A stretch of 64,000 nt of DNA, taken from contig OZ242358.1 in the NCBI GenBank assembly GCA_965208835.1, forward strand, positions 256,001-320,000. Reading direction: 5' to 3'. The notes under the pieces are model-generated. The model saw nothing but the letters and a program-made list of their open reading frames with translations. It searched no databases and was not told where the DNA came from. This document shows, piece after piece, positions 40,715-58,533 of the stretch; within the stretch, counting starts at the first letter, position 1; each line of letters starts with the position of its first letter. A program made the position numbers and the translations under genes. Origin of the DNA: Candidatus Latescibacterota bacterium. GTDB lineage: Bacteria; Latescibacterota; UBA2968; GCA-2709665.

Positions 40715-40733
40715 CGGCTACTCCTCCGTGCGC

Positions 40734-42254: not shown

Positions 42255-42275
42255 AAGTGTCTACACCTCGGTTGT

Positions 42276-42343: not shown

Positions 42344-42889
42344 CTATGATAAACCCGAAACCAGCCTCTGGCGCATCCGGTTCAACTGCGCTTCGAGGGT
42401 TGCGTCGAATACGTGGTCGCCCATCCTGGTTACAAAGCCCGCTCTGAGTCCCCGGTCGATCTCGACGTCCAGGCGTACCTGCTTTCCGGACCAGGCCGAC
42501 AACCGCTGCGCGAGCCTTGCCCGCTGGTCCTGAGAGAGTTCCTGCGCCGACCGTACGTGTGCGGTGATCAGACCCCGTTGCTCGTCCAGGAGCATCAGAA
42601 ACGCCCGAATAATCCCGTCGAGACCCCGTTCGCGCCGTTTGTCGCACAGCAGCAGCAGGAAATTCAGGGTGAGATCCCCGATCCGGCCGGAAAAAAGCCT
42701 CCGGACCGCCGCGCGCTTCTGTTCCGGGTAAATCAGGGGGTCACTGAGAAAGGCGCGCAGGTCTTCCGATTCCCTGATCAGGTTCAGAAGGCCCTCCAGG
42801 TCCTCGCGCACCCGGTCCAGCGCGTCCCGCTCTTCGGCCGCCTGGATGAGCGCCCTGGCATAACGCATTGCGACGGGGGTTTCGTTCAA
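42344..42889 (-). CDS. atpH: ATP synthase delta subunit
   Basis: VAMRYARAL, NFLLLL..KRR, operon position. Confidence 0.93.
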   Translation of the reverse strand: MNETPVAMRYARALIQAAEERDALDRVREDLEGLLNLIRESEDLRAFLSDPLIYPEQKRAAVRRLFSGRIGDLTLNFLLLLCDKRRERGLDGIIRAFLMLLDEQRGLITAHVRSAQELSQDQRARLAQRLSAWSGKQVRLDVEIDRGLRAGFVTRMGDHVFDATLEAQLNRMRQRLVSGLS

Positions 42890-42904
42890 GCTTCGCTCCG
42901 GAAA

Positions 42905-43402
42905 TCAGTTTTGTCCATTGTCAGGAGTGCTGTCGATGAATTCGTCGACAAGCTTCCTGTTCCTGGCGTTGTCCAGGTTTTCGTCCAACACCTTGCCGGC
43001 GGCTTCGATGGCCAGGCCGGCGGCGTGCGTACGAAGTTCCTGGATCGCCTGCTCCTTCTCCTGCCGAATCGTTCGCCGGGCCTGCTCCAGCATCTGCCGG
43101 GCCTCGTCCGAAGCGCGTTGACGCACTTCCTGGGCTGCACGCTCTGCCGCCTCCCGTCCTTCCAAAATGGCCTGTCGCGCCTCGGCCTGGGCCTGCTCCA
43201 TTGCGCGCCGGTTTTCTTCAGCCGCACTCTGGGCTTCCTCCCGGGCCTTTTCCGCCTGGTTCAGGGAATCCCGAATACCCCTTTCACGCTCGTCCAGCAT
43301 GGCCAGCAGCGGTTTCCAGGCAACCGCCCTGAGAACAAGCAGCAGCAGGACGAAGGTAACGATGGTCCAGAACATCAGACCGGTATCGACATTCAGCAAC
43401 AT
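42905..43402 (-). CDS. atpF: ATP synthase F0 b subunit
   Basis: N-terminal TM, AWKPL, coiled coil. Confidence 0.94.
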   Translation of the reverse strand: MLLNVDTGLMFWTIVTFVLLLLVLRAVAWKPLLAMLDERERGIRDSLNQAEKAREEAQSAAEENRRAMEQAQAEARQAILEGREAAERAAQEVRQRASDEARQMLEQARRTIRQEKEQAIQELRTHAAGLAIEAAGKVLDENLDNARNRKLVDEFIDSTPDNGQN

Positions 43403-43443
43403 ACCCGTTCCTCTGGTTTAGACGTCCTCAACGGTATGCGTAC

Positions 43444-43695
43444 TCAGCCGCCTTTTGTCGCCAGAAGGAAGCAGACCACCTGCCCGAAGAGGGCCACACC
43501 CTCTATGAAGGCTGCGGTAATGATCATGGAAGTCCGGATATCGCCGGCTGCTTCGGGCTGCCGTGCGGTGCCCTCCACGGCCATGCCTGCCAGACGTCCG
43601 ATACCAATTCCGGCGCCGATCGTTACCAGCCCCGCGCCAATGCCGGCGGACAAATAACCGTATGCTTCAGCCGCCACGGATGCCACGTCTGCCAC
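43444..43695 (-). CDS. atpE: ATP synthase F0 c subunit (H+-type motif)
   Basis: GxGxGxG, RQPE, FIEGVALF. Confidence 0.95.
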   Translation of the reverse strand: MADVASVAAEAYGYLSAGIGAGLVTIGAGIGIGRLAGMAVEGTARQPEAAGDIRTSMIITAAFIEGVALFGQVVCFLLATKGG

Positions 43696-43722
43696 AACAC
43701 ACCTCCTCCGCTAGGAAGTTAA

Positions 43723-43907
43723 GAAGCTGTCTTAAATTTCCAGCGGTCTTCGCGCGGCTGCAATAGCGCCGGTCGGCGTTGGTCAAATCCACCCGTCTTA
43801 CGAGATCGAGGCTGCGCTTGCTCGCCTCTCATAGACGGATTCTCCCGCCTTGACCGCCACTTTTTCGCTCGCGCTCGGGAACTCACCGGTAATTTTAAAA
43901 CAACTTC
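43723..43907 (+). mobile_element. Family B MITE-like element, subtype B2
   Basis: GAAGCTGTCTTAAA...TTTTAAAACAACTTC; lies between atpB and atpE. Confidence 0.85.
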
Positions 43908-43947
43908 CAAGGGTTTACGATGAAGCGTTGACAACGATTTCCAACGA

Positions 43948-44748
43948 TCAGTGATCCTGATGCACCGCCATCCCGATGAAGACGGCGGACAACATGGTGA
44001 AGATATACGCCTGCACCAATGCCACGAAGATTTCGAGCAGGTAAATCGCCAGCGCGAACAGTACGGACACGGGCGCGACGGCATACGACTTGAACATGAA
44101 GATCAGCCCCAGCAACGCCAGGATGATCACGTGTCCGGCAGTCAAATTGGCAAAGAGACGAATGCAGAGGGCGAACGGCTTGGCAACCAGTCCGATGAGT
44201 TCGATCGGGATCATCAGAAGCGTGATCGGCAGGGGCAGCCCGTGGGGGACCAATCCCTTGAAATAGCCCAGAAAGCCGTTGTGAAGAATGCCGCCCATCT
44301 GAATGACGAGAAAGGCGCAGATCGCCAGCCCGGCGGTTACGCTCACATTACCGGTGGCGGTCGCGCCATAGGGTACGAGGCCCAGCAGATTGCAGGTCAG
44401 GATGAAGAAGAATACGGTAAAGAGAAAGGGTAGAAACCGTCCGGCTTCCTTTGCTCCGATGTTGGGAACGGCGACTTCATCCCTGATAAAAACGACGACC
44501 GATTCCAGGAGATTCGCAAATCCGGTGGGTACCAGGCCGCGACGCCGGGTCGTCCTGATGAAGACCCACAGGAGAAACCCCGCCGCAATCCACATCATGA
44601 CCACGTGCCGGGTGATGGACACGTCGACGCCGAACAGCTCGAAACGGGGTATTTCGACATGAAGAAAGGGCAGGTGGAGCTCTGAAGAATCGAGCAGATG
44701 CTCCATGATGTAGTCTTTTTTGCCTTCCGCGGCACTTTCCGAAGCCAT
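43948..44748 (-). CDS. atpB: ATP synthase F0 a subunit
   Basis: NLLGLVP, RLFANLTAGH, QAYIF. Confidence 0.96.
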   Translation of the reverse strand: MASESAAEGKKDYIMEHLLDSSELHLPFLHVEIPRFELFGVDVSITRHVVMMWIAAGFLLWVFIRTTRRRGLVPTGFANLLESVVVFIRDEVAVPNIGAKEAGRFLPFLFTVFFFILTCNLLGLVPYGATATGNVSVTAGLAICAFLVIQMGGILHNGFLGYFKGLVPHGLPLPITLLMIPIELIGLVAKPFALCIRLFANLTAGHVIILALLGLIFMFKSYAVAPVSVLFALAIYLLEIFVALVQAYIFTMLSAVFIGMAVHQDH

Positions 44749-44752
44749 TGAA

Positions 44753-45157
44753 TCAGACCCTCTCTCGAGTATCCCGCCGAACCGCGGCGCGCTTCACGAA
44801 GAATCGGATTTCCAGAATCTGAAAGAGCAGATAGGACAGAAACAGTGAGAAGACCAGACCGTAAACCGACAGCGCCGTGAATTTGATCAGCAGCACCAGC
44901 CCGACGCAGACGACCAGCATCCGAACGACCATTCCGCCCAACAGCGCTTTCAGAAAGACCGATTGCGGCCGGTCGAACGACCAGATGGCCGAGAGCCCCC
45001 CGGCCAGCGCGTTCAGTGCGCCGATCCCGCACCCGACGGCCGCCGCCCGGACCATGTCAACACCCCAGTTGACGTATAGCGGGTATCCGCCCAGAATTGC
45101 CGCCGCGATCAGGACAGCCCCGACCTGTCTTGCAAATCGGAGGAATTCGGTTCTCAC
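44753..45157 (-). CDS. atpI: ATP synthase protein I-like membrane protein
   Basis: Four TM segments, RM motif, position before atpB. Confidence 0.7.
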   Translation of the reverse strand: MRTEFLRFARQVGAVLIAAAILGGYPLYVNWGVDMVRAAAVGCGIGALNALAGGLSAIWSFDRPQSVFLKALLGGMVVRMLVVCVGLVLLIKFTALSVYGLVFSLFLSYLLFQILEIRFFVKRAAVRRDTRERV

Positions 45158-45174
45158 GTCTCACCTCCGGACGG

Positions 45175-45426
45175 CTATTGGCGGTCCTGCTTTTCGCGTT
45201 CCTGGAGTCGCATTGCCGTTCTGTACAGGTTCAGGAACCCGACGGCGATTCCCAGAGCCAATCCCGCCAACATCAGGTACGGGGCCGTGCCGAGTTTGCC
45301 GTCCAGCCATTTTCCGGCAAAGAGACAGAGAATGAAAGACGCCGCAAACTCGACTCCAAGATTCAGATAAGGGCCTGCTTTACGATAGGCCGACGCCAGA
45401 CCCTGATGTTTTTTCTCCTCCGCCAT
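45175..45426 (-). CDS. atpZ: AtpZ/AtpI family protein
   Basis: G.WLD.KLGT.P...L.GL.LG. Confidence 0.85.
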   Translation of the reverse strand: MAEEKKHQGLASAYRKAGPYLNLGVEFAASFILCLFAGKWLDGKLGTAPYLMLAGLALGIAVGFLNLYRTAMRLQEREKQDRQ

Positions 45427-45490
45427 CGATCAACGGACTGTTAGGCATCTGTGCTGAAATATCCTCGTACACAGCAAGTATCAAGGATGG

Positions 45491-46939
45491 TTATGTTCCA
45501 ATGAGGTTGTCTACCGTCTGCCTGGCCAGTTCCAGAAATCGTGACGGAGCCAGGCCGATATACAGGGTTGCAAGGGACGTCACCACGAGCGCGGTTCGTG
45601 CGAGCGCCGGAAACGTCCCCACCGGCTTTTCGTCGGCGGGCTGTCTCATATACATGCTGACGACGACCCCAAGATAGAAATAGACAGAAATCAGGCTGTT
45701 GAGCACGCCGATTATGGTGAGCGAGACCAGGCCGGCGTCAATCGCCGCACGGAATATGTAGAACTTCCCGAAGAATCCGGCAGTAGGCGGCAGACCCGCA
45801 AGCGAGAGCATAAACAGCGTCATCGTCAGCCCGAGGGCCGGATGTTTGAAACCCAGCCCCGCGTAATCCGTTATGTCGAGGTTCTCTTCGCCCTTCCGCG
45901 CAACCAGAATCACGACTGCGAAGGCGCCAATGTTCATAAAGGTATAGGCAAGCAGATAGAACAATGCGGCCGAAATCCCCTTGCCGCTGGCCGCGGTGAG
46001 CGCAACCAGCACGTAACCGGCATGGGCGACGCTGGAATAGGCCAGCATTCGCTTGATGCTGCGTTGCCCCAGCGCGCTCAGGTTTCCGACGGTCATGGTC
46101 AGCGCGGCCAGGATCCAGAGCACCGCCGTCCACTCTGTCTTCAACGATTCCAGAGATACCATCAGCACGCGCAGGAATGCAACGAAGGCCGCCGCCTTGG
46201 GCCCGGCCGAGAGAAAGGCGGTCACCGACGCGGGCGCGCCTTCGTAGACGTCGGGCGCCCACATATGGAACGGAACCGCCGCCACCTTGAACGCGAACCC
46301 CACGACCAGCAAGACCATTCCGGCATACAGCATCAGCCCGCCGCCGTCAACGCGCCGCACAATCATTGCGCCTACCTGTTGCAGGCTGGTGGAGCCGGTC
46401 GAACCGTAAATCAGGGCAATCCCGTAAAGCAGAAACCCGGTCGCGAAAGCGCCCAGCAAAAGGTATTTCAGAGAGGCTTCATTGGAGAGGGAGCGCGAAC
46501 TGAGGAATCCAACCAGGATATAGAGCGACAGAGACATCAGCTCCAGCCCCAGGAAGATAACGATCAGGTCCGTCCCCGCGGCCATGAGCATCATGCCCAG
46601 GGTGGCCGTCAGCAGCAGGAGATAGTACTCACTTCGGCTGCCCTGTTCCCGCCTGAGGTAACCCGTGGAGACAAAAATGGTCAGCGCCGTGCCAACCGTA
46701 AATATGATGTTGGAAAAGAGCGCAAAGTTGTCCAGCGCGAGCATCCCGCCGAAGGCCTGCTCGGACCGCCCCCAGAGTCCCGCGCAGGCGACCGCCGCCA
46801 GGCCCGTTCCGACAATGGCCGCGTATGCCGCTGCCTCCCCCCGATTTGCCGGTCGGACAATGTCGATGCACAGGATCAGCAGCGCACTACCCGCGACGAT
46901 CAGCGAGGGAACGAGTACAATCCAGTTCAGGTCAGGCAA
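45491..46939 (-). CDS. nuoN: NADH-quinone oxidoreductase subunit N
   Basis: GLELMS, EASLKY, FKVAAVPFHMWAPDVYEGAP, KRMLAYSS. Confidence 0.95.
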   Translation of the reverse strand: MPDLNWIVLVPSLIVAGSALLILCIDIVRPANRGEAAAYAAIVGTGLAAVACAGLWGRSEQAFGGMLALDNFALFSNIIFTVGTALTIFVSTGYLRREQGSRSEYYLLLLTATLGMMLMAAGTDLIVIFLGLELMSLSLYILVGFLSSRSLSNEASLKYLLLGAFATGFLLYGIALIYGSTGSTSLQQVGAMIVRRVDGGGLMLYAGMVLLVVGFAFKVAAVPFHMWAPDVYEGAPASVTAFLSAGPKAAAFVAFLRVLMVSLESLKTEWTAVLWILAALTMTVGNLSALGQRSIKRMLAYSSVAHAGYVLVALTAASGKGISAALFYLLAYTFMNIGAFAVVILVARKGEENLDITDYAGLGFKHPALGLTMTLFMLSLAGLPPTAGFFGKFYIFRAAIDAGLVSLTIIGVLNSLISVYFYLGVVVSMYMRQPADEKPVGTFPALARTALVVTSLATLYIGLAPSRFLELARQTVDNLIGT

Positions 46940-47094
46940 CGCAGTGGTCCTCGGTGAAAATTATTAGCGACATTAATTAACGGGGATGCGATAAAAAAGT
47001 CAAGCCTAAAGTTCGAAATTGGCGCGCAGGCACGATATTGCGGGATGACACAGCTGTTTTGCGGAACGGAAAACGTATATAACTAACAGTGTTT

Positions 47095-47112
47095 ATGTTA
47101 CTTATGTAACAT
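47095..47112. promoter_or_regulatory. perfect palindromic operator-like site in an AT-rich spacer
   Basis: ATGTTAC-TTAT-GTAACAT. Confidence 0.55.
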
Positions 47113-47128
47113 TTAGGCTTCCCGGACG

Positions 47129-48817
47129 TCAGAAGCAGAAGATCATGAATGCGGCCAGAAAGACTGTCACGACCAACACGGCAGTACCCGTCGTCCAGGA
47201 TCGACCCAGAATGCCCTGGGGACCGTGGTATTGACGGCAGCCGGAAACGGCTGCCGCGACCAGCGCCTTTCCGCCCTCGAGGATCGACCTTCCGGCGGAA
47301 CCACCCGACCGCGCCATAACCCGGACGATGCCGGGAAGCAGCCGTCGATACACCCAGTCGGTATCCAGGTTTACGGACCGGTGTACCGCCGGATAAATTC
47401 CCGTACGCTTCAATACAAGGAAGGCCAGGGCGGAGAAAAACAACAATTGGAACTGCGTAACCAGGTGGTTCGCCGTGTAGGGTTCGTAATTCACTTCGTA
47501 GGGCAGAATCCCGTAGAGTAGCTTCGGAATGATGCCTATCAGGACACAAATTGCGGCTGCGGCGCCCATTGCGATGCGCATGTTCAGAGGCGCCTCCCTG
47601 CAGCGGATTCCCGAATCTGCGGAGAAGAAGGCAAGGTAGGGGATCCTGATGCCTGTATACAGCATTACGCCCGCCGAAGCGAATAACAACGCCAGCCAGG
47701 TCAGGAAGTAGTGTCCATCGGCCACCGCCCCAAGGATAAACGATTTGCTGACAAAGCCGTTGAAGAACGGGACGGCCGAAATCGACGCCGCGCCGACGAT
47801 GCAGAAAACCGCCGTCAGAGGCATGGACCGGTAAAGCCCGCCAAGTTCCGATGCCCTGGCCGTACCAGTACGAAAAAGCACTGCACCCATCGTCATAAAC
47901 AGCAAGGCTTTGTAGATGACGTGGGTGGCGGCGTGGGCGGCCGTTCCGTTCAGGGCCATCTGCGTCCCGATCCCGACTCCGACGACCATGAATCCCAGCT
48001 GGATGTTCAGGCTATAGGCCAGCACCCGCCTGAGGTCGTTTTCGATGACCGCGTAAAACATGGGAAACACGGTCATCGCGGCGCCAATCGGGATCAGGAT
48101 TTCCGTACCGGGAAAGCCCCGGGCAAGCGCGTAGACCGCCAGCTTGGTTGTGAAAGCGCTCAGGAACACGGTCCCGGTAACCGTCGCCTCCGGATAGGCG
48201 TCAGACAGCCAGTTGTGGAGCAGGGGAAACGCGCATTTGATCCCAAAGGCAATGAAGACGAGCGTCGTGCCCAGACCGTTCAGTCCCAACGCTTCAAATG
48301 CGATAGACCCCGTCTCACGCAAATGGATCAGAATGCCCGCCAGCAGAATCATGCCCGAGCAGACCTGCACGATCAGATAGCGCATTCCGGCGGCATAGGC
48401 GCGGTTGGTTCGGCGGCTCCAGATCAGGAATACGGAAGAAATCGCCGACAGTTCCCAGAAGACGAACAGGGTAATCAGATCGCCCGCGAAGAGGGCGCCG
48501 ACGGCGCTGCCCGCATAGAACAGGCCCGCGACGTGCTGCGCATTGTCCTTCACGTGCAGCGCATAGATGACGCCAAGCAGGGCGGCGATATGGAAGATGT
48601 AGCCGAAGACAAGGCTGAGGCTGTCGATGCGCACCAGCGTAAGGGAATAGTCGAAGATTCCGATCCTGCAGTATTCCCCCGGGTTGAGCCCGAGCAGATG
48701 GGCAAGCCCGGCAACCGGAAGCAGCAGCATATAGGCCGATTGCAGGCGCCCGCGCAGTAACGGTATCAGCAGCGACCCGATAATCAGGATCAACGCCGGC
48801 GGCAACTGGTCAATCAT
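47129..48817 (-). CDS. mrpD: Mrp-type antiporter-like subunit (MrpD/MrpA-like) with C-terminal lateral helix and TM
   Basis: FWE, PLLHNWLSDAYPEA, TK, RRVLAYS, H...KALLF, LDTDWVYR tail. Confidence 0.85.
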   Translation of the reverse strand: MIDQLPPALILIIGSLLIPLLRGRLQSAYMLLLPVAGLAHLLGLNPGEYCRIGIFDYSLTLVRIDSLSLVFGYIFHIAALLGVIYALHVKDNAQHVAGLFYAGSAVGALFAGDLITLFVFWELSAISSVFLIWSRRTNRAYAAGMRYLIVQVCSGMILLAGILIHLRETGSIAFEALGLNGLGTTLVFIAFGIKCAFPLLHNWLSDAYPEATVTGTVFLSAFTTKLAVYALARGFPGTEILIPIGAAMTVFPMFYAVIENDLRRVLAYSLNIQLGFMVVGVGIGTQMALNGTAAHAATHVIYKALLFMTMGAVLFRTGTARASELGGLYRSMPLTAVFCIVGAASISAVPFFNGFVSKSFILGAVADGHYFLTWLALLFASAGVMLYTGIRIPYLAFFSADSGIRCREAPLNMRIAMGAAAAICVLIGIIPKLLYGILPYEVNYEPYTANHLVTQFQLLFFSALAFLVLKRTGIYPAVHRSVNLDTDWVYRRLLPGIVRVMARSGGSAGRSILEGGKALVAAAVSGCRQYHGPQGILGRSWTTGTAVLVVTVFLAAFMIFCF

Positions 48818-49055
48818 AATAGTCTTCCTTGCGTCGGAGAATCACGCGCAACCCTCTGGCTGCCAGCACGAACACCACACAGGCGGCAAACCCGTACCAC
48901 GCATGAAACCCGATCCACTCCTCAACCTCAAAATGGCCATATTTTTCCAGGAAGAGATCTACCGCCAGCAGCAGGACGCAGACCGCGTAGAACGCCAGGT
49001 GGATTTTCTTTGAGTTGCCCGGTTTGTCCGGCCGGCTTTTCTTTTTTTCGTCCAT
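48810..49055 (-). CDS. small 2-TM protein of Mrp clusters
   Basis: GFHAWYGFAACV...LRRKEDYYD; overlaps the next gene start. Confidence 0.75.
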   Translation of the reverse strand: MDEKKKSRPDKPGNSKKIHLAFYAVCVLLLAVDLFLEKYGHFEVEEWIGFHAWYGFAACVVFVLAARGLRVILRRKEDYYD

Positions 49056-49081
49056 GGTCTCTTCCGTCAGGGATGGGCTAT

Positions 49082-49241
49082 CAGCCCGTTGAAAAAGCCC
49101 GTCCTGGCTGCGGCCGGCCCTTGCGGTCGAAATACCGCGTTGCGCTCCCTCGCCGAATCGCAGGATGGGACTCGGTTGCGCGCCTTGTCTTCGGCCACAA
49201 TGGTTCGGCCTCGCCTGCAGAGCGACTTTATCAACGGACTG
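49082..49241 (-). mobile_element. Family C MITE, longest copy (160 bp), CTAT target duplication
   Basis: TIRs CAGCCCGTTGAAAAA / TTTATCAACGGACTG with CTAT on both flanks. Confidence 0.88.
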
Positions 49242-50697
49242 CTATGGGCGCCAGAAGCCGGTAGATATCATCGGCGCAGAAGAAGAGCGCCAGACATCCC
49301 AGCGCCGTCAGGCACAGGGGGACCACGCAGAACGCCGGGGCTTCCCGGATAGGAGATGGACCGGCGGGCACGGTGGCGGGTGTCGCGAAAAACGCGCGTG
49401 CGACGACCGGCATCAGGTACGCGACGTTCAGGAGCGAGCTGACGATCAACACGCCCACGAGGATTGTCCGGTCCGCATCCGCCGCGCCCAGCGCGAGGTA
49501 CCACTTGCTCCACGAACCGCCGAGCGGGGGCAGGCCGATCACGCTCAGCGATCCCACAAAAAAAGCGAACATGGTAATCGGCATTGTCTTTCCTATGCCC
49601 GCCATATCGCTGATTTCCGTCTTGTGTGCGGCCACCATGATAGCGCCGGCGCAGAAGAACAGCGTGATCTTTCCAAAGGCATGCATCGCAATATGCATGG
49701 AGCCGCCGATAATTCCCCAGCTATTGGCAATAGCCGCGCCGAGTACAACGTAGGACAACTGGCTGACCGTGGAATAGGCGAGACGCGCCTTGAGATTGTC
49801 TTTGGTCAATGCAACCAGGGATGCGATCAGCAGCGTTGCCGCGGCGACGTAGGCAAGCCACAGGCTCGTGCCGGTGTTGGCGAGCAGATCGATGCCGAAG
49901 ATGTAGACCACAATCTTCATCACCGTAAACACGCCGGCTTTGACGACGGCCACGGCGTGCAGCAGCGCGCTCACGGGCGTCGGCGCAACCATTGCCGCGG
50001 GCAGCCAGCGGTGAAAGGGCATCAGCGCCGCCTTGCCGGTCCCGAATGCATATAGCGCCAGCAGTATGCCCACCACGGCCGGGCTCGCTTTACCCGCCAG
50101 GATCCCGCCGGGTTCGAATTCCAGGGTGCCCGTCAGATTCCACGTCCACACCACTGCCAGCAGCATCAGCCCGACCGAGGTGCCGAGCAGTATGCCCATA
50201 TAGATCCTGCCCGACCGGAGCGCTTCCTCCGTCCGATGGTGGGTGACCAGCGGATAGGTCGACAGGGTCAATAGTTCGTAGAAGATGAACAGCGTGAACA
50301 TATTCCGGGCGAATGCAACGCCAAGGGCGCCCGTAATGGCCACCGCAAAGAAGACGTAAAAGCAGGTCTGGCCGGGTTCGTCATGACCGCGCATGTACCC
50401 GATGGAATACAGAGACGTCAGGATCCAGAGCCCCGAGGCGATCAGCCCGAAGAGCATGCCCAGCGGTTCGACTTCAAAGGCAAACGCAAGGCCCGGCATC
50501 ACCTCGAGAATCTCAATACCCGGTCTCGAACCCGACAGAACCTCCGGAACCAAAGAGAGCACGACGAAAAACAGCGCGCCTCCGGTCGCCAGCGTGGCAG
50601 CCTCACGGAGATTGGGCCGTTGTCCGAGAAGACCGATGAGCGGCGCGCCCAGCAGAGGCAGCACAACGGCGAGCAGCGTGGCATTCGAAGCGGTCAT
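49231..50697 (-). CDS. mrpD: Mrp antiporter subunit D family protein (second copy)
   Basis: FYE, KAALMPFHRWLPAAMVAPTPVSALLHAVAVVK, KARLAYST; ATGA overlap. Confidence 0.88.
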   Translation of the reverse strand: MTASNATLLAVVLPLLGAPLIGLLGQRPNLREAATLATGGALFFVVLSLVPEVLSGSRPGIEILEVMPGLAFAFEVEPLGMLFGLIASGLWILTSLYSIGYMRGHDEPGQTCFYVFFAVAITGALGVAFARNMFTLFIFYELLTLSTYPLVTHHRTEEALRSGRIYMGILLGTSVGLMLLAVVWTWNLTGTLEFEPGGILAGKASPAVVGILLALYAFGTGKAALMPFHRWLPAAMVAPTPVSALLHAVAVVKAGVFTVMKIVVYIFGIDLLANTGTSLWLAYVAAATLLIASLVALTKDNLKARLAYSTVSQLSYVVLGAAIANSWGIIGGSMHIAMHAFGKITLFFCAGAIMVAAHKTEISDMAGIGKTMPITMFAFFVGSLSVIGLPPLGGSWSKWYLALGAADADRTILVGVLIVSSLLNVAYLMPVVARAFFATPATVPAGPSPIREAPAFCVVPLCLTALGCLALFFCADDIYRLLAPIAVR

Positions 50698-52211
50698 GGA
50701 GCGATTCCCATCAGCCATCCGGCGGCCTGCCTGGCAACGCCCACGGTGAGGGTCGTCGACATCCCGAAATAGAGGGTGGCCGCAATCAGGATCCACATCG
50801 GGATTTGCATCAGCAGCGGCGCCTCGTCCACGCCGGCCGGAACGGGGGGCTTGCGGAAATAGGCGACTTCAACCACGCGCCATACGTAGACGACCGCCAG
50901 AAGGGAACCCAGCAGGACCAGAACGGCTACCGGCCACCAGCCCTTTTCCAGGGCAGCCAGAACCAGGTACCACTTGCTGATGAAGCCCACCGTTAGAGGG
51001 ACGCCGATCAGGCTGAGCCCACCGAGGACAAAGGCGGCCATGGTCAACGGCATGCGCCGTCCGAGCCCGTGCATATCGTCGAGATTTACGGAGCCCACGC
51101 GGAGGGCAACACAACCCATGCCCAGAAACAGCGCGCCCTTCATCACGGCGTGATTGAAGAGATGGACGATTCCCGCCGTCAGGCCGTTCAACGACCCCGG
51201 CCCGAACCTGACGTCCGGTCCGGCGCCGCTGACCGACACAATACCGACTCCCAGCATCATGTATCCGATCTGAGCGACGCTGGACCAGGCGAGCATGCGC
51301 TTGATGTTGGTCTGGAAGATGGCGACCGTGGAGGCCGCGAATACGGCAAGGAGCGAGAGTGGCAACAGAATGGCGTGCAATCCGACCGTATCGAATGCGA
51401 ATCGGGGTCCGAATATGGTGAAGACGAAACGCAGGAGCACGTAGACGGAGACCTTGGTCGCCGTTGCCGCAAGAAAGGCAGTCACCATGGATGGCGCGTA
51501 ACAATAGGCGTTGGGCAGCCACATGTGCAATGGAAACAGGGCCAGTTTCAGACAGAGGCCGACGCCGAGAAACGCGAACGCCGCCAGCACTGTCCTGGTG
51601 TCCAGAACCGGACCGAGGCGCACCGCGAGGTCCGCCATGTTCAGGGTTCCCGTGGCCATATAAAGGAGGCCCACGCCGATCAGAATGAACGTCGCCCCGA
51701 CGGTTCCCAATACCAGGTATTGGTAGGCGGCCGTCAGGGCGCGGCGGTCGCCGCCAAGGCTGATCAGTGCATAGGTGGAAAGGGAGGAAATCTCGAGAAA
51801 GACGAACAGGTTGAACGCGTCTCCTGTGATGGCGATGCCGAGGAGGCCCGTCAGGCACAGGAGATATGCCGCGTAAAACAGGTAGTGGCGGTCGTGCGGG
51901 ATTTCACGGGCCGCGCTGTGAGGCGCGTAGACCAGTACAACGGCGCCTATGGACGCCACCAGGAGCAATATGAACGCGTTGACCGCATCGATCCGATACT
52001 CGATCCCCCAGGGTGCGCTCCAGCTCCCCATCGCGTATGAGATTGTACCGGCATCCAGGACCCTTATGAGCAGCAGCGCGGCGATCCCCAGCGCCGCCCA
52101 TGCGACAGCCGTGGTGAAGGCCCAGACCAGCATCCTTCGCCTCAACAACAGGCAGACCGGTGCGGCAATGAGGGGAAGGACGATCTGCAGAGCGGGCAAA
52201 TGGTCGGACAT
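50694..52211 (-). CDS. mrpD: Mrp antiporter subunit D
   Basis: DAFNLFVFLEI, KLALFPLHMWLPNAY, TK, KRMLAWSS. Confidence 0.9.
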   Translation of the reverse strand: MSDHLPALQIVLPLIAAPVCLLLRRRMLVWAFTTAVAWAALGIAALLLIRVLDAGTISYAMGSWSAPWGIEYRIDAVNAFILLLVASIGAVVLVYAPHSAAREIPHDRHYLFYAAYLLCLTGLLGIAITGDAFNLFVFLEISSLSTYALISLGGDRRALTAAYQYLVLGTVGATFILIGVGLLYMATGTLNMADLAVRLGPVLDTRTVLAAFAFLGVGLCLKLALFPLHMWLPNAYCYAPSMVTAFLAATATKVSVYVLLRFVFTIFGPRFAFDTVGLHAILLPLSLLAVFAASTVAIFQTNIKRMLAWSSVAQIGYMMLGVGIVSVSGAGPDVRFGPGSLNGLTAGIVHLFNHAVMKGALFLGMGCVALRVGSVNLDDMHGLGRRMPLTMAAFVLGGLSLIGVPLTVGFISKWYLVLAALEKGWWPVAVLVLLGSLLAVVYVWRVVEVAYFRKPPVPAGVDEAPLLMQIPMWILIAATLYFGMSTTLTVGVARQAAGWLMGIAP

Positions 52212-52570
52212 CAGGGCGCCTCCTCACCCTGACCGTAGATATCCTGCTCTTCTATTGTGCCGTAGGCTTCCTGTATCCGCACCACCAGTGCCAACCCCAA
52301 CGATGTCGTGGCGATACCGACCACGATCGCCGTGAGAATGAGTACGTGCGGCAGCGGATTCGAGTAGCTCTGCACCCCCTCCGCGATAATCGGCGCGCTA
52401 CCGCCGGAGACCTTGCCCAGGCTGATGTAGAACAGGAAGACGGACGTCTGAAAGATATTCAGGCCGATCAGTTTCTTGACCAGGTTGCCGCTGGCGATCA
52501 CCGCGTAGAAACCGATCATCATCAGGACGATGACGATCCAGTAGTTGAATAGACCCGGGAGCGCGGTCAT
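52211..52570 (-). CDS. mrpC: Mrp antiporter subunit C
   Basis: NLVKKLIGL, NPLPHVLILTAIVVG. Confidence 0.92.
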   Translation of the reverse strand: MTALPGLFNYWIVIVLMMIGFYAVIASGNLVKKLIGLNIFQTSVFLFYISLGKVSGGSAPIIAEGVQSYSNPLPHVLILTAIVVGIATTSLGLALVVRIQEAYGTIEEQDIYGQGEEAP

Positions 52571-52986
52571 GATCGTGCCCTGCCGGCAAACGCGAAGAAG
52601 ACTCCGATAATCACCGAAGCCACGGTGATTCCCACGCCCAGTTCGATCAAGAGAATTCCCAGATGCTGACCGCCCACCGGATCAGCACCAAGCACGCCGT
52701 AGTCCAGGTAGCGGCCGCCCTTCAATATTCCCGCGACCCCGGTAACGGCATACAGGAGCAGGCCCAGGGCAATGACAATTTCCACGATGCCGGGCCCGAC
52801 CACCCGCTTTGCCTCGTCCAGGCCGAAAATCAGTGTGTACAGCACGAACCCCGCCGCAAAGATCACACCCGCCTGGAACCCGCCCCCGGGCCCGAAATCG
52901 CCGTGAAACTGGACATAAAGCGCAAACAGAAGGATCAGCGGGATGAACAGCTTGGCGATGACCCTGGGTATGATCTGGTGTTTCAC
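52567..52986 (-). CDS. mrpB: Mrp antiporter subunit B (MnhB domain)
   Basis: HGDFGPGGGFQAG, IELGVG; GTGA overlap start. Confidence 0.9.
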   Translation of the reverse strand: MKHQIIPRVIAKLFIPLILLFALYVQFHGDFGPGGGFQAGVIFAAGFVLYTLIFGLDEAKRVVGPGIVEIVIALGLLLYAVTGVAGILKGGRYLDYGVLGADPVGGQHLGILLIELGVGITVASVIIGVFFAFAGRARS

Positions 52987-53552
52987 CGCTCTTCCTCCCG
53001 GTCGCGGCCTGGCCGTGACCCCTTCAGCAGCAGCAACACCCCGACGCCCGCGCAAAAGATCACCGTGGTCTCACCGAGCGTATCGTATCCCCGGTAGCTG
53101 GCAAGGACTGAAGTCACAATATTCTCAACGTCGACGCGCTTTGCTGAACCATCGACGTGGGGTACGGAATCCTTGAGAAATTCCGGCGCAATATGGGTAT
53201 GGACCGGCGCTTCGGCGTCGCCGAACCTCGGCATGTCCAGCGTCCCGTAGATCAGGACCGCCCCCGTCGCCAGGACCACGAGAAGAGGAAGCGGAGACGG
53301 TCGGGAAGGCCTCTTCTCCACCCGGGTTGTCAGCAGGAGGGTCCCGAGAAGCAGTACGGTCGAGATGCCCGCTCCCACGGCAGCCTCTGTAAACGCCACG
53401 TCGACGGCGTCCATCACGGTAAACAACCCCGCGGAAAGCAGGCTGAAGATCCCGGCCAGGATCACGGAGGCGAGCAGATTGCGGATGAGGACGACGGCGA
53501 CGGCGGTGGCGACCAGGAACGCCAGCAGAACAGCGTCGATGAGTTCGATCAT
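52983..53552 (-). CDS. DUF4040 / MrpA C-terminal-like subunit (B')
   Basis: DAVDVAFTEAAVGAG, NIVTSVLASYRGYDTLGE. Confidence 0.88.
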   Translation of the reverse strand: MIELIDAVLLAFLVATAVAVVLIRNLLASVILAGIFSLLSAGLFTVMDAVDVAFTEAAVGAGISTVLLLGTLLLTTRVEKRPSRPSPLPLLVVLATGAVLIYGTLDMPRFGDAEAPVHTHIAPEFLKDSVPHVDGSAKRVDVENIVTSVLASYRGYDTLGETTVIFCAGVGVLLLLKGSRPGRDREEER

Positions 53553-53866
53553 GGTTGGCGGCTATCCTCGTGGCGGAGAGGCTTCAATCCGGAGGTAAAA
53601 GCGGCCTTTGCAACCGCGTGGGTCGATGCCGGGCCGGTCAAAAAGATCAGCAGGAGGATCAGAAACAGCTTGACGGTGACCATGCTGAGGCCGCCCTGCA
53701 GCATCAGCCCGACAAGCAAAAGCCCGGCGCCGAACGTATCCGTAATTCCGGCGCCGTGCATGCGGCTGTAAAAATCGGGAAGTCTGATCAGCCCGATACC
53801 GCCCACGATGCAGAAGAACGACCCCAGGAGCAGACATGCCCAGCTGGCGACATCGTTGACCATCAT
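53549..53866 (-). CDS. mrpG: Mrp antiporter subunit G
   Basis: GLIRLPDFYSRMH, P..THA. Confidence 0.92.
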   Translation of the reverse strand: MMVNDVASWACLLLGSFFCIVGGIGLIRLPDFYSRMHGAGITDTFGAGLLLVGLMLQGGLSMVTVKLFLILLLIFLTGPASTHAVAKAAFTSGLKPLRHEDSRQP

Positions 53867-54150
53867 CTGGTGGACTCTCCGCTCTCGCCGTCAGCTGAAC
53901 CAAAACTGCCGTACTGAACAAACTTGAGTACGGCAAATGTTCCGATGAAGTTCAGCAGGACGTAGATCAGCGCCAGGTCGAGAAAATCCGGCCTGCCGGT
54001 AAGAAAGCCCAGCACCGCGATCAGGAGAATCATCTTGGTGCCGAACATATTCGCGGCGAGGATACGGTCGTAAACCGTCGGACCCGCGAACGCCCGAATC
54101 AGAGCCAGAACCATCGTAATCAGGACCGCCGCCATCGCCGATGCAAACAT
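53863..54150 (-). CDS. mrpF: Mrp antiporter subunit F
   Basis: GPTVYDRILA, DLALIY..LNF; start MFASAM at 54150 (TGATG overlap). Confidence 0.9.
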   Translation of the reverse strand: MFASAMAAVLITMVLALIRAFAGPTVYDRILAANMFGTKMILLIAVLGFLTGRPDFLDLALIYVLLNFIGTFAVLKFVQYGSFGSADGESGESTR

Positions 54151-54635
54151 CAGGACTCTCCCTCCAGTGCCGTGACGCGGCGATCCATCCCGCCGTCCGC
54201 GAGTTCCTCCGCGCTTTCGAGCGAGAGCGCGTGGACCAGCACGACATCGTCTTGCACGTCCACCGACACGGTCCCTGGAGTCAGTGTGATCGAGTTGGCG
54301 TAGATGACCTTCCCGAGCGCGGTTTTCTGGGTTGCCCGGGTACGAATCAGGGTGGGGCTGACCGGCAGCCGCGGATTCAGTATTCGCAATGCCACGTCGA
54401 TATTGGACCGGAAGATGGCAAGCAGCAGCCAGGGAACGTACAGGATTGCGCGGCCGGCCAGGTGGATGGGATGCCCCTCGGAATCGACGATACGCATTCG
54501 CCGGACGATGCCGACCACCGCCAGACATGAGACGATTCCCAGAACGAGAACCAGCGTTCGTTCGATGGTATAATGGCCCGACCAGAGCAGCCATACACCG
54601 AACAACGTAACGCCAAGACTCAGCAGAATTCTCAA
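54150..54635 (-). CDS. mrpE: Mrp antiporter subunit E
   Basis: WLLWSG, SNIDVA, ANSITLTPGT, VHAL; TTG start 9 nt after GGAGG. Confidence 0.9.
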   Translation of the reverse strand: MRILLSLGVTLFGVWLLWSGHYTIERTLVLVLGIVSCLAVVGIVRRMRIVDSEGHPIHLAGRAILYVPWLLLAIFRSNIDVALRILNPRLPVSPTLIRTRATQKTALGKVIYANSITLTPGTVSVDVQDDVVLVHALSLESAEELADGGMDRRVTALEGES

Positions 54636-54712
54636 ACCCGGTTCCCTCCGATTCCGTCCTGTCCCGGCACTGACCCGCCATTCGGAAATCCATCCAGGGA
54701 CGGAACACCCAC
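54636..54712 (-). promoter_or_regulatory. candidate riboswitch-like structured leader of mrpE
   Basis: Alternative helices and an anti-SD (UUUCCGA vs UCGGAGG); see findings. Confidence 0.4.
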
Positions 54713-54749
54713 CGCGCAACTGCGGACCGCGCCCGATGTCCGGTTCGAC

Positions 54750-56270
54750 CTATCTGATTTGCTCATCTTTGCGAACCGTCGCGAAGAGTTCGTTCAGGCT
54801 TTCGATCTGCCGGATGCGCACCTGTTCGATCACGAGCTTTGCGGACAACTCGGTCTTTTTCAGAAACGCGCCCGGGTACAGGCCAATCCAGAACATCAGG
54901 ACCACCAGGGGCGTCATAATGAACCATTCACGCAGGGACAGGTCCGGCAGATTCCGGTTGCGTTCGTCTTTCACCTCTCCCCACACCACGCGCTGGAACA
55001 TCCACAGCATGTACACGGCGGCAAGGACGACACCCGACGCGGCTATGATGCCATACACCATGTTTGCCTTAAAGGCTCCGAGAAGGATCAGAAACTCGCC
55101 GACAAACCCGTTCAGCCCGGGAAGTCCGATGGAAGAAAGCGTTGTAATCAAAAAGAAGGTGGCGAATACCGGAATGGTTTTGGCCAGTCCGCCATAATCC
55201 GCAATCAGCCGCGTATGCCGTCGTTCGTATATCATGCCCACGATCAGAAACAGCGCTCCCGTTGAAAGTCCGTGGTTCACCATCTGGATGATTCCGCCCT
55301 GCATACCCTGGGCGTTCATGGCAAAGATGCCCAGGACCACGAAACCCAGGTGGCTCACACTCGAGTACGCCACCAGTTTCTTGATGTCCGTCTGTACCAT
55401 CGCGACCAGGGCGCCGTACACGATGCCGACCACGGAGAGCGCCATGATGTAAGGCGTGAAGTACAACGCCGCCAGCGGGAACAGCGGCAGACAGAACCGG
55501 ATCAACCCGTAGGTCCCCATCTTGAGCAGAACCCCCGCCAGGATGACACTGCCCGCCGTTGGCGCCTCCACGTGCGCGTCCGGCAACCAGGTATGAAGCG
55601 GGAACAGCGGGACCTTTATGGCGAAACTCAGGAAGAACGCCAGGAAGAGCCAGTGTTGTTGCGGGTGCAGATAGGTCATCTTCTGAAGAACCATGAGATC
55701 GAAGGTACCGTACTGCAGACCGAGATAGACAATCGCCACGAGCATCAACAGGCTGCCCGCCAGGGTAAACAGCACGAACTTCACCGCCGCATAGATCCGA
55801 CGTTCGCCGCCCCAGACGCCGATCAACAGAACCATCGGAATCAGCATGGCCTCCCAGAACACGTAGAAGAGGAACAGGTCAAGGGCGCAGAACACCCCTA
55901 CCATCCCCGTTTCCAGCAGAAGCATCGAAGCCATGTACTCCCGCACACGGGACGTGATCGACGACCATGAGGCAAGAATCGCCAGGAAGGTGAGCAGCGT
56001 GGTCACCAGTACCAGCAACAGGCTGATTCCGTCGATCCCCACGAAATACGAGATGCCGAACTGGCCCACCCATTCTGCCTTTTCCACAAACTGCATCCCG
56101 GGAACGCCCGCTCTGAATTCGACGTACAGCAAGACAGACAGCAGCAGGTTCACAAATGCCACGGCCAGAGCGAAAGCGCGGCTGAATCCGTCCCGCCCGC
56201 GACCGAACAGCAGGACCAGCACGCCGCCGGTCAACGGTATGAAGATCAGGCTTGTAAGGAGTCCGGGCAT
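54750..56270 (-). CDS. nuoM: NADH-quinone oxidoreductase subunit M
   Basis: GIDGIS, FWE, KVPLFPLHTWLPDAHVEAP, LLKMG, FVGE. Confidence 0.96.
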   Translation of the reverse strand: MPGLLTSLIFIPLTGGVLVLLFGRGRDGFSRAFALAVAFVNLLLSVLLYVEFRAGVPGMQFVEKAEWVGQFGISYFVGIDGISLLLVLVTTLLTFLAILASWSSITSRVREYMASMLLLETGMVGVFCALDLFLFYVFWEAMLIPMVLLIGVWGGERRIYAAVKFVLFTLAGSLLMLVAIVYLGLQYGTFDLMVLQKMTYLHPQQHWLFLAFFLSFAIKVPLFPLHTWLPDAHVEAPTAGSVILAGVLLKMGTYGLIRFCLPLFPLAALYFTPYIMALSVVGIVYGALVAMVQTDIKKLVAYSSVSHLGFVVLGIFAMNAQGMQGGIIQMVNHGLSTGALFLIVGMIYERRHTRLIADYGGLAKTIPVFATFFLITTLSSIGLPGLNGFVGEFLILLGAFKANMVYGIIAASGVVLAAVYMLWMFQRVVWGEVKDERNRNLPDLSLREWFIMTPLVVLMFWIGLYPGAFLKKTELSAKLVIEQVRIRQIESLNELFATVRKDEQIR

Positions 56271-56419
56271 GCGTTCGATTCCTAAACCTTGATTCGTAAG
56301 ATTTCGTAGACGTTAAATCGAATATGTGCTAGTTAATAAAGGCGATTGGAAAGCGGATTACCAGGATACACCAGGTCACTGGACGCGTTCGTGACCTCTC
56401 CTCCCAGCAGCCCGACCAC

Positions 56420-56580
56420 CGGGTGAGACGTAAGACGGGAGAGGGTAGAGATTACCAGCCTTGTGAGGATTCTTCTCGTGCCGGAGGCAAGAAGGTACAA
56501 AAATAGCGGGCGAGTATTTCTTCTACCGTCTACCGGCTCCCGTCTCACCGCTTTTCGTCTGCCCTCTACCCTCTACCCGC
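56420..56580 (+). repeat. Family A repeat between nuoL and nuoM
   Basis: CCTTGTGAGG...GTGCCGGAGGCAAGAAGG core with heptamer arms. Confidence 0.85.
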
Positions 56581-56630: not shown

Positions 56631-58502
56631 TTAATTTTCCGACACATAATAAATCACCGCAACCACGCCAAGCACCATCCAGAGCGCATAGGTAGGCGCG
56701 TTACCCGACTGGAAGCGGGTAACGACCCAGCCGCCGCCTTTCACCAGCAGACCCAGCCCGTTCGCGATCCCATCCACCACGATTGCATCGATAACACGCG
56801 CCAATACCAGCGAAAGCCGATGAATCGGCCGCACAATGAAGGCGTGGTAAATCTCGTCGACGTACCACTTTCGAGTCAGCAGCCCGTGAACGGAATTGGA
56901 GGATTCCGCTCCCAGCCGGCCCGCTCTGTGCATCCGGTATGCAATCCCGATTCCGAGCAGACCCGCAAGGACGGAAATCCCCACCAGCATCCCACCGGAC
57001 AATCCTCCCGATGCAGTATGACGGGCCGCGCCGGCCGTATCGTTCAGGAATGCATCGATCCAGCCCTGCCCCGGTGGAACGCCCACGAAGCCGACGACGG
57101 CCGATCCCAGCGCCAGAACGACCAGCGGGACGGTCATGTTATACGGGGACTCGTGAGCGTGGTCGTACAGCTGCCGGTCCCGGGGCTGTCCATGGAACGT
57201 CATCAGGATCAGCCGGAACATATAAAAAGCCGTAAGGACAGCCCCCACGACGCCGAGAGCCCAGATCGCCAGGTTTCCGGAGCGGTACGCACTCACCAGG
57301 ATTTCGTCCTTGCTCCAGAAGCCGGCCAGCGGCGGAATTCCCGCGATGGCGAGCGCGCCGATCCAGAACGTAACGCCGGTGATCCGCATCTTGCGCAGCA
57401 GCCCTCCCATCTTCCGCATATCCAGTTCGTCCTGCATCGCATGCATCACACTGCCCGCCGCCAGAAACATCAGACCCTTGAAGAAAGCGTGCGTGAACAG
57501 GTGGAAAATTCCGGCAGTATATGCGCCCACCCCCACGCCAATGAACATGTACCCCAGCTGGCTGACCGTTGAATAGGCAAGCACCCGCTTGATGTCGGTA
57601 TTCACCAGCGCGATGGTCGCGGCCAGCAACGCCGTGGCGACGCCGACCCAGGCCACTACGGTGCCGGCGGTGGGCGCGAGCATATAAAGCACATTCGAGC
57701 GCGCGACCATATAGACCCCCGCCGTGACCATCGTGGCCGCATGGATCAGGGAACTCACGGGCGTGGGACCTTCCATCGCATCGGGCAGCCAGACGTAAAG
57801 CGGAAACTGCGCCGACTTCCCGCAGGCGCCCACGAAGAGAAGCAGCGCAATCGCCGTCGCGACCCCCGTAGACAACATCAGAGGCGCCTTTTCGAATACC
57901 TCGGTGTACTGCACCGTGCCCAGATAGCTTACCATCAAAAAAATGCCGAGCAGGAAACCGAAGTCCCCGATCCGGTTCACGATGAACGCCTTCTTGCCGG
58001 CATCGGAAGCGGACTTCCGCTCGTACCAGAAGCCGATGAGGAGATATGAACACAATCCCACGCCTTCCCACCCCACGAACATCAGCAGATAATTGTTCGC
58101 GAGCACCAGAACCAGCATCGAGAAGACAAAAAGGTTCAGGTATGCGAAGAATCTGGCAAACCCCGGGTCGTTGCGCATGTATCCGATAGAATACACATGG
58201 ATCAGAAACGAGATTGTCGTCACCGTCACGATCATGATCGTTGACAATGCATCGACCTGGAACCCCACCGAGGCTTTGAACGACCCCGCCGCAATCCACG
58301 CGTACACGTCTTCATTCAATTCTCCTCCGCCCATCACCCAGAACAGAACGCGCAGTGACAGAATCCAGGAGAGACCGACGGCCGCGGCGCCGATGTATCC
58401 GGACGCCTCCCGAAGCCGGTACCCGAACAAACCGTTGACGGCCGCGCCGGCAAGCGGAAAGAGAATGATCAGAATGACTACGGTCAGCATTTTCAATTCC
58501 AT
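56631..58502 (-). CDS. nuoL: NADH-quinone oxidoreductase subunit L
   Basis: GWEGVG, NRIGD, GKSAQ, WLPDAMEGPTPVS, HAFFK, SKDEI, lateral helix; exact start uncertain. Confidence 0.96.
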   Translation of the reverse strand: MELKMLTVVILIILFPLAGAAVNGLFGYRLREASGYIGAAAVGLSWILSLRVLFWVMGGGELNEDVYAWIAAGSFKASVGFQVDALSTIMIVTVTTISFLIHVYSIGYMRNDPGFARFFAYLNLFVFSMLVLVLANNYLLMFVGWEGVGLCSYLLIGFWYERKSASDAGKKAFIVNRIGDFGFLLGIFLMVSYLGTVQYTEVFEKAPLMLSTGVATAIALLLFVGACGKSAQFPLYVWLPDAMEGPTPVSSLIHAATMVTAGVYMVARSNVLYMLAPTAGTVVAWVGVATALLAATIALVNTDIKRVLAYSTVSQLGYMFIGVGVGAYTAGIFHLFTHAFFKGLMFLAAGSVMHAMQDELDMRKMGGLLRKMRITGVTFWIGALAIAGIPPLAGFWSKDEILVSAYRSGNLAIWALGVVGAVLTAFYMFRLILMTFHGQPRDRQLYDHAHESPYNMTVPLVVLALGSAVVGFVGVPPGQGWIDAFLNDTAGAARHTASGGLSGGMLVGISVLAGLLGIGIAYRMHRAGRLGAESSNSVHGLLTRKWYVDEIYHAFIVRPIHRLSLVLARVIDAIVVDGIANGLGLLVKGGGWVVTRFQSGNAPTYALWMVLGVVAVIYYVSEN

Positions 58503-58533
58503 GCAAATCAACAGACAGGGTAAAACGCAACGC

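Follow-up and report, generated by a model that had tools for sequence, protein, structure and literature searches.

A probable autonomous group 3-like Mrp operon in a variable antiporter slot of a Latescibacterota nuo-atp gene row

Introduction

Why does a block of Mrp-type antiporter genes lie inside an operon for respiratory complex I? The question is raised by a 64,000-nucleotide (nt) stretch of DNA from Candidatus Latescibacterota bacterium (assembly GCA_965208835.1, contig OZ242358.1, positions 256,001 to 320,000 of the forward strand), here called the window, in which ten mrp genes are located between nuoM and nuoN. The block reads mrpE-mrpF-mrpG-A'-mrpB-mrpC-D1-D2-x81-D3, where A' is a split-off C-terminal domain of MrpA, D1 to D3 are antiporter-like subunits and x81 is a small, unnamed protein. 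A sequence-only reading of the window had left two answers, a co-regulated stand-alone antiporter or a second, Na+-coupled membrane arm that docks on NuoH and the peripheral arm of complex I. We compared the locus with related genomes and public sequences, and we conclude that it is probably an autonomous, group 3-like Mrp operon that occupies a variable site for antiporter genes within a nuo-atp gene row, most likely for joint expression with complex I. The window's genome (5.18 Mb, a single contig) is labeled G000, so that the window is G000:C1:256001-320000; relatives are labeled G0xx, the window's genus g1 and related genera g2 to g9.

Results

The Mrp block occurs with and without complex I genes

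We investigated the distribution of the block among close relatives. D3 was present in 32/41 close-relative genomes, and 20-kb stretches were examined in 20 of these 32. Nine of the 20 stretches had the arrangement of the window, nuoF...M-[ten mrp]-nuoN-atp; seven were from g1, one from G015 (g2) and one from G038 (g9), which belongs to another family than the window's genus. The remaining 11 stretches, all from g6, contained the ten genes, including x81, in unchanged order and with 33-78% identity, and no nuo or atp gene was found in these 20 kb. In all 15 g1 genomes, match coordinates placed D3 ~190 bp ahead of nuoN. D3 was detected in 15/16 g6 genomes, and an orthologue of this nuoN in 0/21, the best nuoN match in three g6 genomes being 34-36% identical and lying within a different nuo cluster. 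The genera g3, g4 and g5 had the nuoN orthologue in 5/5 genomes and D3 in 0/5.

The related loci in a public scan with one genome per species numbered at least 597, and 80 of them were analyzed. The full colinear ten-gene block was found in 60/80. nuoN lay beside the block in 4/71 loci with at least 2 kb of sequence beyond D3 and was missing from that position in the other 67, and nuoM lay beside it in 4/60 loci with at least 2 kb before mrpE. All four nuo-flanked public loci were metagenome-assembled genomes of the window's own genus. By their labels, the other hosts were Alpha- and Gammaproteobacteria, Planctomycetota, Gemmatimonadota and other Latescibacterota, and tblastn with the window's Nuo proteins detected none beside the stand-alone blocks. 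Obligate co-occurrence of the block with genes for NuoH and the Q module was thus seen neither in the public loci (67/71) nor in g6.

These results bear directly on the proposal of an alternative arm, in which the Mrp complex would replace NuoJ/K/N/M/L, docking on NuoH and the peripheral arm, and turn complex I into a Na+ pump. The proposal draws on real likenesses: equivalents of NuoJ, K, L, M and N are encoded in the block together with a Na+ module, and D1 and D3 are closest by sequence to MbsH and MbsH' of the archaeal MBS, a membrane-bound sulfane sulfur reductase. The block stands alone in most genomes, however; it is present in g6, where this nuo operon was not found, and is absent or replaced by another antiporter gene in genomes that have the operon. 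Pfam searches detected no NuoH, NuoA or NuoB/C/D/I-like redox subunit encoded in the block itself. Because the block is found apart from nuo genes in relatives and in many other phyla, an occurrence that the sequence-only reading had itself taken to speak against a second arm, we give this proposal almost no credence. The other option of that reading, a co-regulated stand-alone antiporter, fits all the evidence.

The gap between nuoM and nuoN holds antiporters of two unrelated families

We next examined the contents of the nuoM-nuoN gap across the phylum by surveying the region upstream of nuoN orthologues, which were matched in 35/168 phylum genomes at E <=1e-90. The operon nuoA-(B)-CD-E-F-G-H-J-K-L-M...N-atp recurs across the phylum. 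The gap, hereafter the slot, contained the ten-gene Mrp block in 10 genomes (eight of g1, including G000, with G015 and G038), a single NhaD/NhaE-like antiporter gene of the CitMHS_2 family in nine (G016, G020, G017, G018, G021, G085, G086, G049 and G050), and nothing in four (G084, G077, G078 and G079). In each filled slot the antiporter genes are on the same strand as their nuo neighbors. Both fillings were found within one genus, g9, where G038 has the Mrp block and G086 the CitMHS_2 gene.

The CitMHS_2 gene of the slot encodes a protein of 487-501 amino acids (aa) that matches PF16980 with E values down to 4.3e-186. PF16980 was found once per genome, in the slot, in the positive controls G017 and G086, and was not found in G000, G002, G015 or G038, all of which have the Mrp block there. 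Database names for relatives of the protein are "sodium:proton antiporter" and "Na+/H+ antiporter NhaD/arsenite permease-like", the Pfam name is "putative citrate transport", and no NCBIfam model matched it. The CitMHS_2 antiporter shares nothing with complex I, unlike Mrp. Because two unrelated antiporter families share the slot, what is kept appears to be an antiporter beside the pump and not a part of the pump.

Two further genomes have antiporter genes close to nuo genes in other positions. In G048, whose nuoN match is just 45% identical, nuoM and nuoN are adjacent and a CitMHS_2 gene is located between nuoCD and nuoE (L148 = G048:C1:506262-521662, local 1194-2489), so that in this more distant nuo operon the gene occupies another slot. 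G084, one of the genomes with an empty slot, has an Mrp block that is more distantly related (36-47% identity) and in which x81 was not detected; it lies on the strand of nuoA, ~10 kb upstream of that gene (L150 = G084:C29:176500-196400, local 1953-9110).

The in-slot blocks have more than one history, and the slot is a likely transcription-unit border

We built a quick maximum-likelihood tree of 38 D3 sequences, with branch support from the Shimodaira-Hasegawa-like approximate likelihood ratio test (SH-aLRT). In-slot G038 grouped with g6 copies from its own family, which stand alone (SH-aLRT 100), and g1 and g2 formed a group with two Latescibacterota copies that likewise stand alone (SH-aLRT 90). 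The constraint of a single lineage for all nine in-slot D3 copies was rejected, with a log-likelihood lower by 56 and p = 0.00175 in the approximately unbiased (AU) test. Since the in-slot copies are not one lineage, the block must have moved into the slot repeatedly or moved out of it repeatedly. D3 is 60-72% identical between g1, G015 and G038.

The gap between D3 and nuoN (189 nt) is AT-rich and contains TTGACT, a 17-nt spacer, TTAATT and a conserved tail. Inspection by eye showed that this element is kept in the aligned g1, g2, g3 and g5 genomes, with Mrp and CitMHS_2 slots alike, that it is degenerate in g4 and that it is absent in the second family. A scan of positions 44600-56400 with promoter and terminator consensus sequences showed no excess over shuffled sequence (two promoter-like sites against a shuffle mean of 3.7, and 11 terminator-like sites against 12.8) and did not pick up the element before nuoN; none of the sites lay in the two intergenic gaps, and one promoter-like match lay in the 3' end of D3. 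Rfam gave no match at E up to 1 in 44500-56500. A search of sequencing records gave six holders of the sequence from three studies, none of them recorded as RNA. The element is likely a promoter for nuoN-atp; nuoN would then share a transcript with the ATP synthase genes and not with nuoA-M, and the antiporter genes would close the nuoA-M unit at its 3' end.

A border of this kind could also be a harmless place for genes to settle, so that the site between the nuoA-M and nuoN-atp units would be permissive and linkage to complex I would be under no selection. In the window's family the element precedes nuoN irrespective of the slot's filling, four slots are empty and the block has other contexts in 67/71 public loci, all of which is consistent with such neutral lodging. 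It sits poorly with the slot contents, which were only antiporters (19/23 genomes, with 4/23 empty) and came from two unrelated families, and with the separate lineages of the in-slot Mrp copies. The CitMHS_2 gene of G048, at another site inside the same nuo operon, and the distant Mrp block of G084, upstream of nuoA on the same strand, likewise argue against it, as does the antiporter gene reported from the corresponding site in Rhodothermus marinus. We therefore consider neutral lodging unlikely and favor retention of the Mrp operon for joint expression with complex I.

Gene content of the Mrp block

The genes of the row and their assignments by Pfam and NCBIfam are listed in Table 1. Every gene of interest in the window is on the minus strand, and the co-directional row runs nuoA-nuoCD (fused)-nuoE-F-G-H-J-K-L-M, the ten mrp genes, nuoN and the atp operon; nuoA, the fused nuoCD and nuoE fall just past the window end. 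Homologues of all seven Mrp functions (A to G) are encoded together in the block.

Table 1. Positions of the features of the nuo-mrp-atp row in the window
Feature	Position	Strand	Assignment
nuoH	59677-60717	-	Pfam/NCBIfam
nuoJ, nuoK	between nuoH and nuoL	-	
nuoL	56631-58511	-	
nuoM, upstream border of the slot	54750-56270	-	NF004499 618 bits (cut-off 585); TIGR01972 643 bits
mrpE	54150-54719	-	Pfam MNHE 5.2e-30; start uncertain, TTG at 54719 or 54635, the latter taken in the sequence-only reading
mrpF	53863-54150	-	Pfam MrpF_PhaF 3e-17; NCBIfam subunit F models
mrpG	53549-53866	-	TIGR01300 89.7 bits (cut-off 63.1)
A', split MrpA C-terminal domain (MbhD+MbhE-like, DUF4040, NuoJ-like)	52983-53552	-	MbhD 5.3e-16, MbhE 3.2e-8
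mrpB	52567-52986	-	NF009162 176.6 bits (cut-off 120)
mrpC (NuoK-like)	52211-52570	-	NF005624 140.8 bits (cut-off 95); Pfam Oxidored_q2
D1, MrpD/MbsH/MbhH-like antiporter-like subunit	50694-52211	-	6u8y_H 3.2e-64
D2, antiporter-like, NuoL/MrpA-type N-terminus, without lateral helix	49231-50697	-	Proton_antipo_N 2e-5
x81, small protein with two transmembrane helices, unnamed conserved subunit	48810-49055	-	kept in 68/80 public loci
D3, MrpA-N/MbsH'/NuoL-like, with TM15, lateral helix and TM16	47129-48817	-	NF009310 712 bits (cut-off 564)
Promoter-like element before nuoN	46951-47003	-	by eye
nuoN, downstream border of the slot	45491-46939	-	TIGR01770 455.6 bits (cut-off 332.6)
F1Fo ATP synthase operon atpZ-I-B-E-F-H-A-G-D-C, complete	37580-45426	-	Pfam

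The genes of the block are tightly packed, with overlaps of 1 nt (E/F and C/D1), 4 nt (F/G, G/A', A'/B, B/C and D1/D2) and 8 nt (x81/D3). Larger spacings were found between nuoM and mrpE (at least 30 nt), between D2 and x81 (175 nt) and before nuoN. The open reading frame (ORF) of mrpB extends to 53055, and its GTG start at 52986 overlaps the preceding stop codon. The A' gene matches NF009159 with 199 bits (cut-off 141) and corresponds to residues ~600-780 of the MrpA models. The gene content and order that the sequence-only reading had assigned to this block were borne out. Its "B-prime" is indeed a DUF4040 gene, but the B-type name has to be dropped, the product being the split C-terminal domain of MrpA and not a second MrpB; its "x" gene is present, as a conserved subunit gene and not as filler; and the surrounding nuo series is less complete than it had supposed, nuoB and nuoI being absent from the operon and located elsewhere in the genome.

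Three antiporter-like subunits

We compared D1, D2 and D3 with solved structures by sequence search. The best solved relatives of D1 were MbsH (6u8y_H, 3.2e-64), MbhH (6cfw_H, 2e-62) and MrpD (7qru_D, 3.3e-52). D2 was closest to NuoL (8e9g_L) and MbhH, both at ~4e-40, and its N-terminal NuoL/MrpA-type domain gave a weak match. For D3 the best solved relative by sequence was MbsH' of MBS (6u8y_X, 1.1e-31). D3 also matches the equivalog NF009310, "Na(+)/H(+) antiporter subunit D", over its full length, and the long D3 form therefore belongs to an already modeled family.

An AlphaFold2 (AF2) model of D3 from 42 sequences had a mean predicted local distance difference test score (pLDDT) of 74.9 and a predicted template modeling score of 0.77. 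It contained a 14-helix core followed by transmembrane helix 15 (TM15, residues 449-471), a long helix (487-531) and a last transmembrane helix (542-561), the tail having a pLDDT of only ~40-63. Foldseek searches with the model returned MrpA chains at the top (query TM-score 0.70-0.73), followed by ND5/NuoL, NdhF and MbsH'; the alignments with these four covered at least 600 columns, against ~480-520 for NuoN- and MrpD-type chains. MbsH' in MBS has the same succession of TM15, loop, helix HL and TM16 (PMC7684303). In the 42 sequences E122, K194, K225 and K358 were invariant, as were N483, D485, D487, Y490 and R491 at the start of the long helix; the conserved-charge check covered D3, and any placing of the first four residues on particular helices is tentative. 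The NuoL-like lateral helix and terminal transmembrane helix that had been read from the sequence of the last subunit thus reappear in the model. The wider structural parallels drawn at the same time (three antiporter-like subunits, a lateral helix, likeness to MBS) are sound, but they are general to a widespread Mrp type and not specific to this locus.

x81 is a conserved subunit modeled on the surface of D3

The 81 codons of x81 specify two hydrophobic helices and, at the C-terminus, a conserved acidic motif with EDYYD as its last residues. Homologues were recovered from 68/80 public loci, and in most of them the x81 stop overlaps the D3 start by 2-17 nt. Pfam gave no match beyond a chance-level 0.01, NCBIfam gave none, the best E value of a Protein Data Bank (PDB) profile search was 0.43, and a protein-atlas search matched only clusters of "hypothetical protein". 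In the window's genus a 175-nt gap (window 49056-49230) precedes x81; in other phyla the protein is N-terminally longer, with ~85-100 aa and a conserved YWLD motif. In two public contigs from Gammaproteobacteria and Proteobacteria (L071 and L076), only D2-x81-D3 was detected despite 8 kb of upstream sequence, which may reflect a block that has been divided or reduced.

Modeling of D3 with x81 gave a complex score of 0.73, against 0.00 for the best of three controls; this level was reached by 116/157 solved complexes and 2/215 mismatched pairs, a calibration that is approximate since custom alignments were used. The runs agreed in at least 88% of contacts, and the partner pLDDT was at least 71. 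The modeled contacts of x81 on D3 lie at residues 253-258, 366-386, 449-469 (TM15) and 474-485. The model supports binding of x81 to D3 without proving it.

The modeled site at the D3 surface corresponds to the region that docks on MbsM in MBS (PMC7684303). This likeness, together with the nuo linkage kept in three genera, is what would commend a physical partnership, in which a separate Mrp complex binds complex I as a membrane supercomplex, perhaps through x81 or the lateral-helix region of D3, and the protons of complex I are passed on locally to drive Na+ export. Where no nuo gene is near, however, the entire block with x81 is equally conserved, and in sister genomes the slot is filled by a single-subunit antiporter unlike complex I. 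We find such a partnership improbable. The same low standing applies to its functional extension, a two-part "sodium-exporting complex I" in which NADH oxidation would drive Na+ export within one supercomplex and the antiporter half would be swapped between NhaE-type and Mrp-type proteins; this too we think improbable. An Mrp operon expressed together with complex I, its product acting separately, is the reading that we retain.

Complex I and ATP synthase genes around the block

The host complex I appears to have a complete membrane arm, comprising NuoA, H, J, K, L, M and N, without the Mrp block, and the genes for this arm look intact. The scores of NuoL and NuoM exceed equivalog cut-offs; that of NuoN exceeds the TIGR01770 subfamily cut-off but not the NuoN equivalog cut-offs. 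The fused nuoCD encodes 594 aa and directly follows nuoA (L001 = G000 319001-331000, local 1412-3603). Lone nuoB and nuoI homologues were found far off in G000, at 2495490-2495819 and 1958293-1958667. nuoH adjoins nuoJ in most related operons too, and G084 has nuoB after nuoA.

G000 has nine PF00361 genes, six at this locus and three in a second nuo cluster. The second complex I cluster, at 2.50-2.51 Mb, comprises 11 subunits, nuoA-B-C-D-H-I-J-(K)-L-M-N without nuoEFG (L002 = G000 2496001-2516000, local 6933-17984); nuoK is presumed in this count, and its NuoL is long (692 aa). At the locus studied here, the complex I, antiporter and ATP synthase genes form one co-directional row of ~29 kb. 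The gene named atpI is a 134-aa ORF (44753-45157) without a Pfam match, and its name rests on position. The c subunit of the ATP synthase, inspected by eye, has the key glutamate followed by a glycine, a pattern that we take to point to H+ rather than Na+ coupling.

Discussion

Antiporter genes at the nuoM-nuoN junction may not be peculiar to this phylum. The nqo operon of Rhodothermus marinus reportedly has a gene for an Na+/H+ antiporter, nhaD (later NhaE), between its nuoM and nuoN equivalents. The nine phylum genomes with a single CitMHS_2 gene resemble that reported arrangement, the comparison being one of position, and the window departs from it in having a ten-gene Mrp operon instead of a single antiporter gene. 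The NhaE antiporter family is described in PMC9408914. Literature searches returned no paper on an Mrp operon between nuoM and nuoN, and the term "MrpD3" did not occur among the 15 papers listed of 161.

Among Mrp systems, group 3 is described as having duplicated mrpD genes and a gene order unlike mrpABCDEFG (Ito et al. 2017, PMC5703873). The block has both features, a likeness of gene content and order. The described member Ah-Mrp of Aphanothece halophytica (mrpCD1D2EFGAB) acts as an Na+/H+ antiporter in Escherichia coli (PMC5703873). As set out in that source, Ah-Mrp is likewise a multi-subunit system of the cation/proton antiporter family CPA3 with duplicated mrpD, and the order EFG-A'-B-C-D-D-x-D of the window can be read as a rotation of its C-D-D-E-F-G-A-B. 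Unlike Ah-Mrp as described there, which has two D genes plus A, the block has three antiporter-like genes, the additional x81, and a split MrpA, with D3 bearing the lateral helix and a separate MbhD/E-like protein.

The block also resembles MBS of Pyrococcus furiosus (PDB 6U8Y): D3 is closest by sequence to MbsH' and D1 to MbsH among solved chains, and the MrpA functions are split over several proteins as in MBS and the membrane-bound hydrogenase MBH. Unlike MBS, it lacks the MbsM/J/K/L/N redox module (NuoH/B/C/D/I-like) and has three antiporter-like subunits instead of two. It shares its modules with Bacillus-type Mrp complexes (Anoxybacillus 6Z16, B. pseudofirmus 7QRU and Dietzia 7D3U), and the top structural matches of the D3 model were MrpA chains, whereas in these complexes MrpA is one protein of ~800-960 aa, the antiporter-like subunits are two and x81 is missing. 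PDB sequence and profile searches found no solved structure of this ten-gene Mrp type.

We propose that the ten genes encode an autonomous CPA3-type antiporter with a split MrpA and several MrpD-like subunits. Three antiporter-like proton channels would be arranged in a row, D1 being MrpD/MbsH-like, D2 having a NuoL-like core and D3 being MbsH'/MrpA-N-like, and the lateral helix of D3 would clamp the row. The MbhD/E-like protein and MrpC would form the NuoJ/K-like module and MrpB, E, F and G the Na+ module, and x81 is predicted to pack against TM15 of D3. The proton-motive force generated by complex I would drive the expulsion of Na+, possibly K+, in exchange for H+, and the Mrp complex would neither replace nor extend the membrane arm of complex I. 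The slot would lie at the 3' end of nuoA-M, in the window's family just before the promoter-like element for nuoN and atp, and an Na+/H+ antiporter would have been retained there repeatedly so that antiporter and proton pump are made together.

Several points weigh against this proposal. The ion specificity proposed for the block is a prediction, and one Mrp is described as a Ca2+/H+ antiporter (PMC5703873). Co-transcription with nuoA-M is suggested by the ~30-nt gap and the shared strand only, and the clade for the AU test was chosen after the tree had been seen. The arrangement has been kept over a long divergence, which could reflect a closer functional tie than co-expression. Finally, the pump module of MBS is joined to MbsM, the NuoH homologue, by TM15 of MbsH' and the loop after it (PMC7684303), and because the modeled site on D3 corresponds to this region, x81 may block or mimic an MbsM-type contact or serve as an adaptor for it.

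The arrangement varies a known theme, and its points of interest are the repeated exchange of two antiporter families at one slot and a widespread three-pump Mrp with x81. A lesson for annotation is that additional NuoL/M/N-like genes in a nuo operon may code for something other than complex I subunits; here they belong to a lodger operon. The ten-gene Mrp occurs widely in several phyla and combines a complex I-like number of pump subunits, three, with an MBS-like split of MrpA and an unnamed small subunit; it is a reasonable structural target for understanding how complex I-like arms were built. In one phylum, the nuoM-nuoN gap is a recurring home of Na+/H+ antiporters, and because these come from two unrelated families, their recurrence argues that selection acts on the joint production of a sodium exporter and a proton pump, probably in connection with a salty environment.

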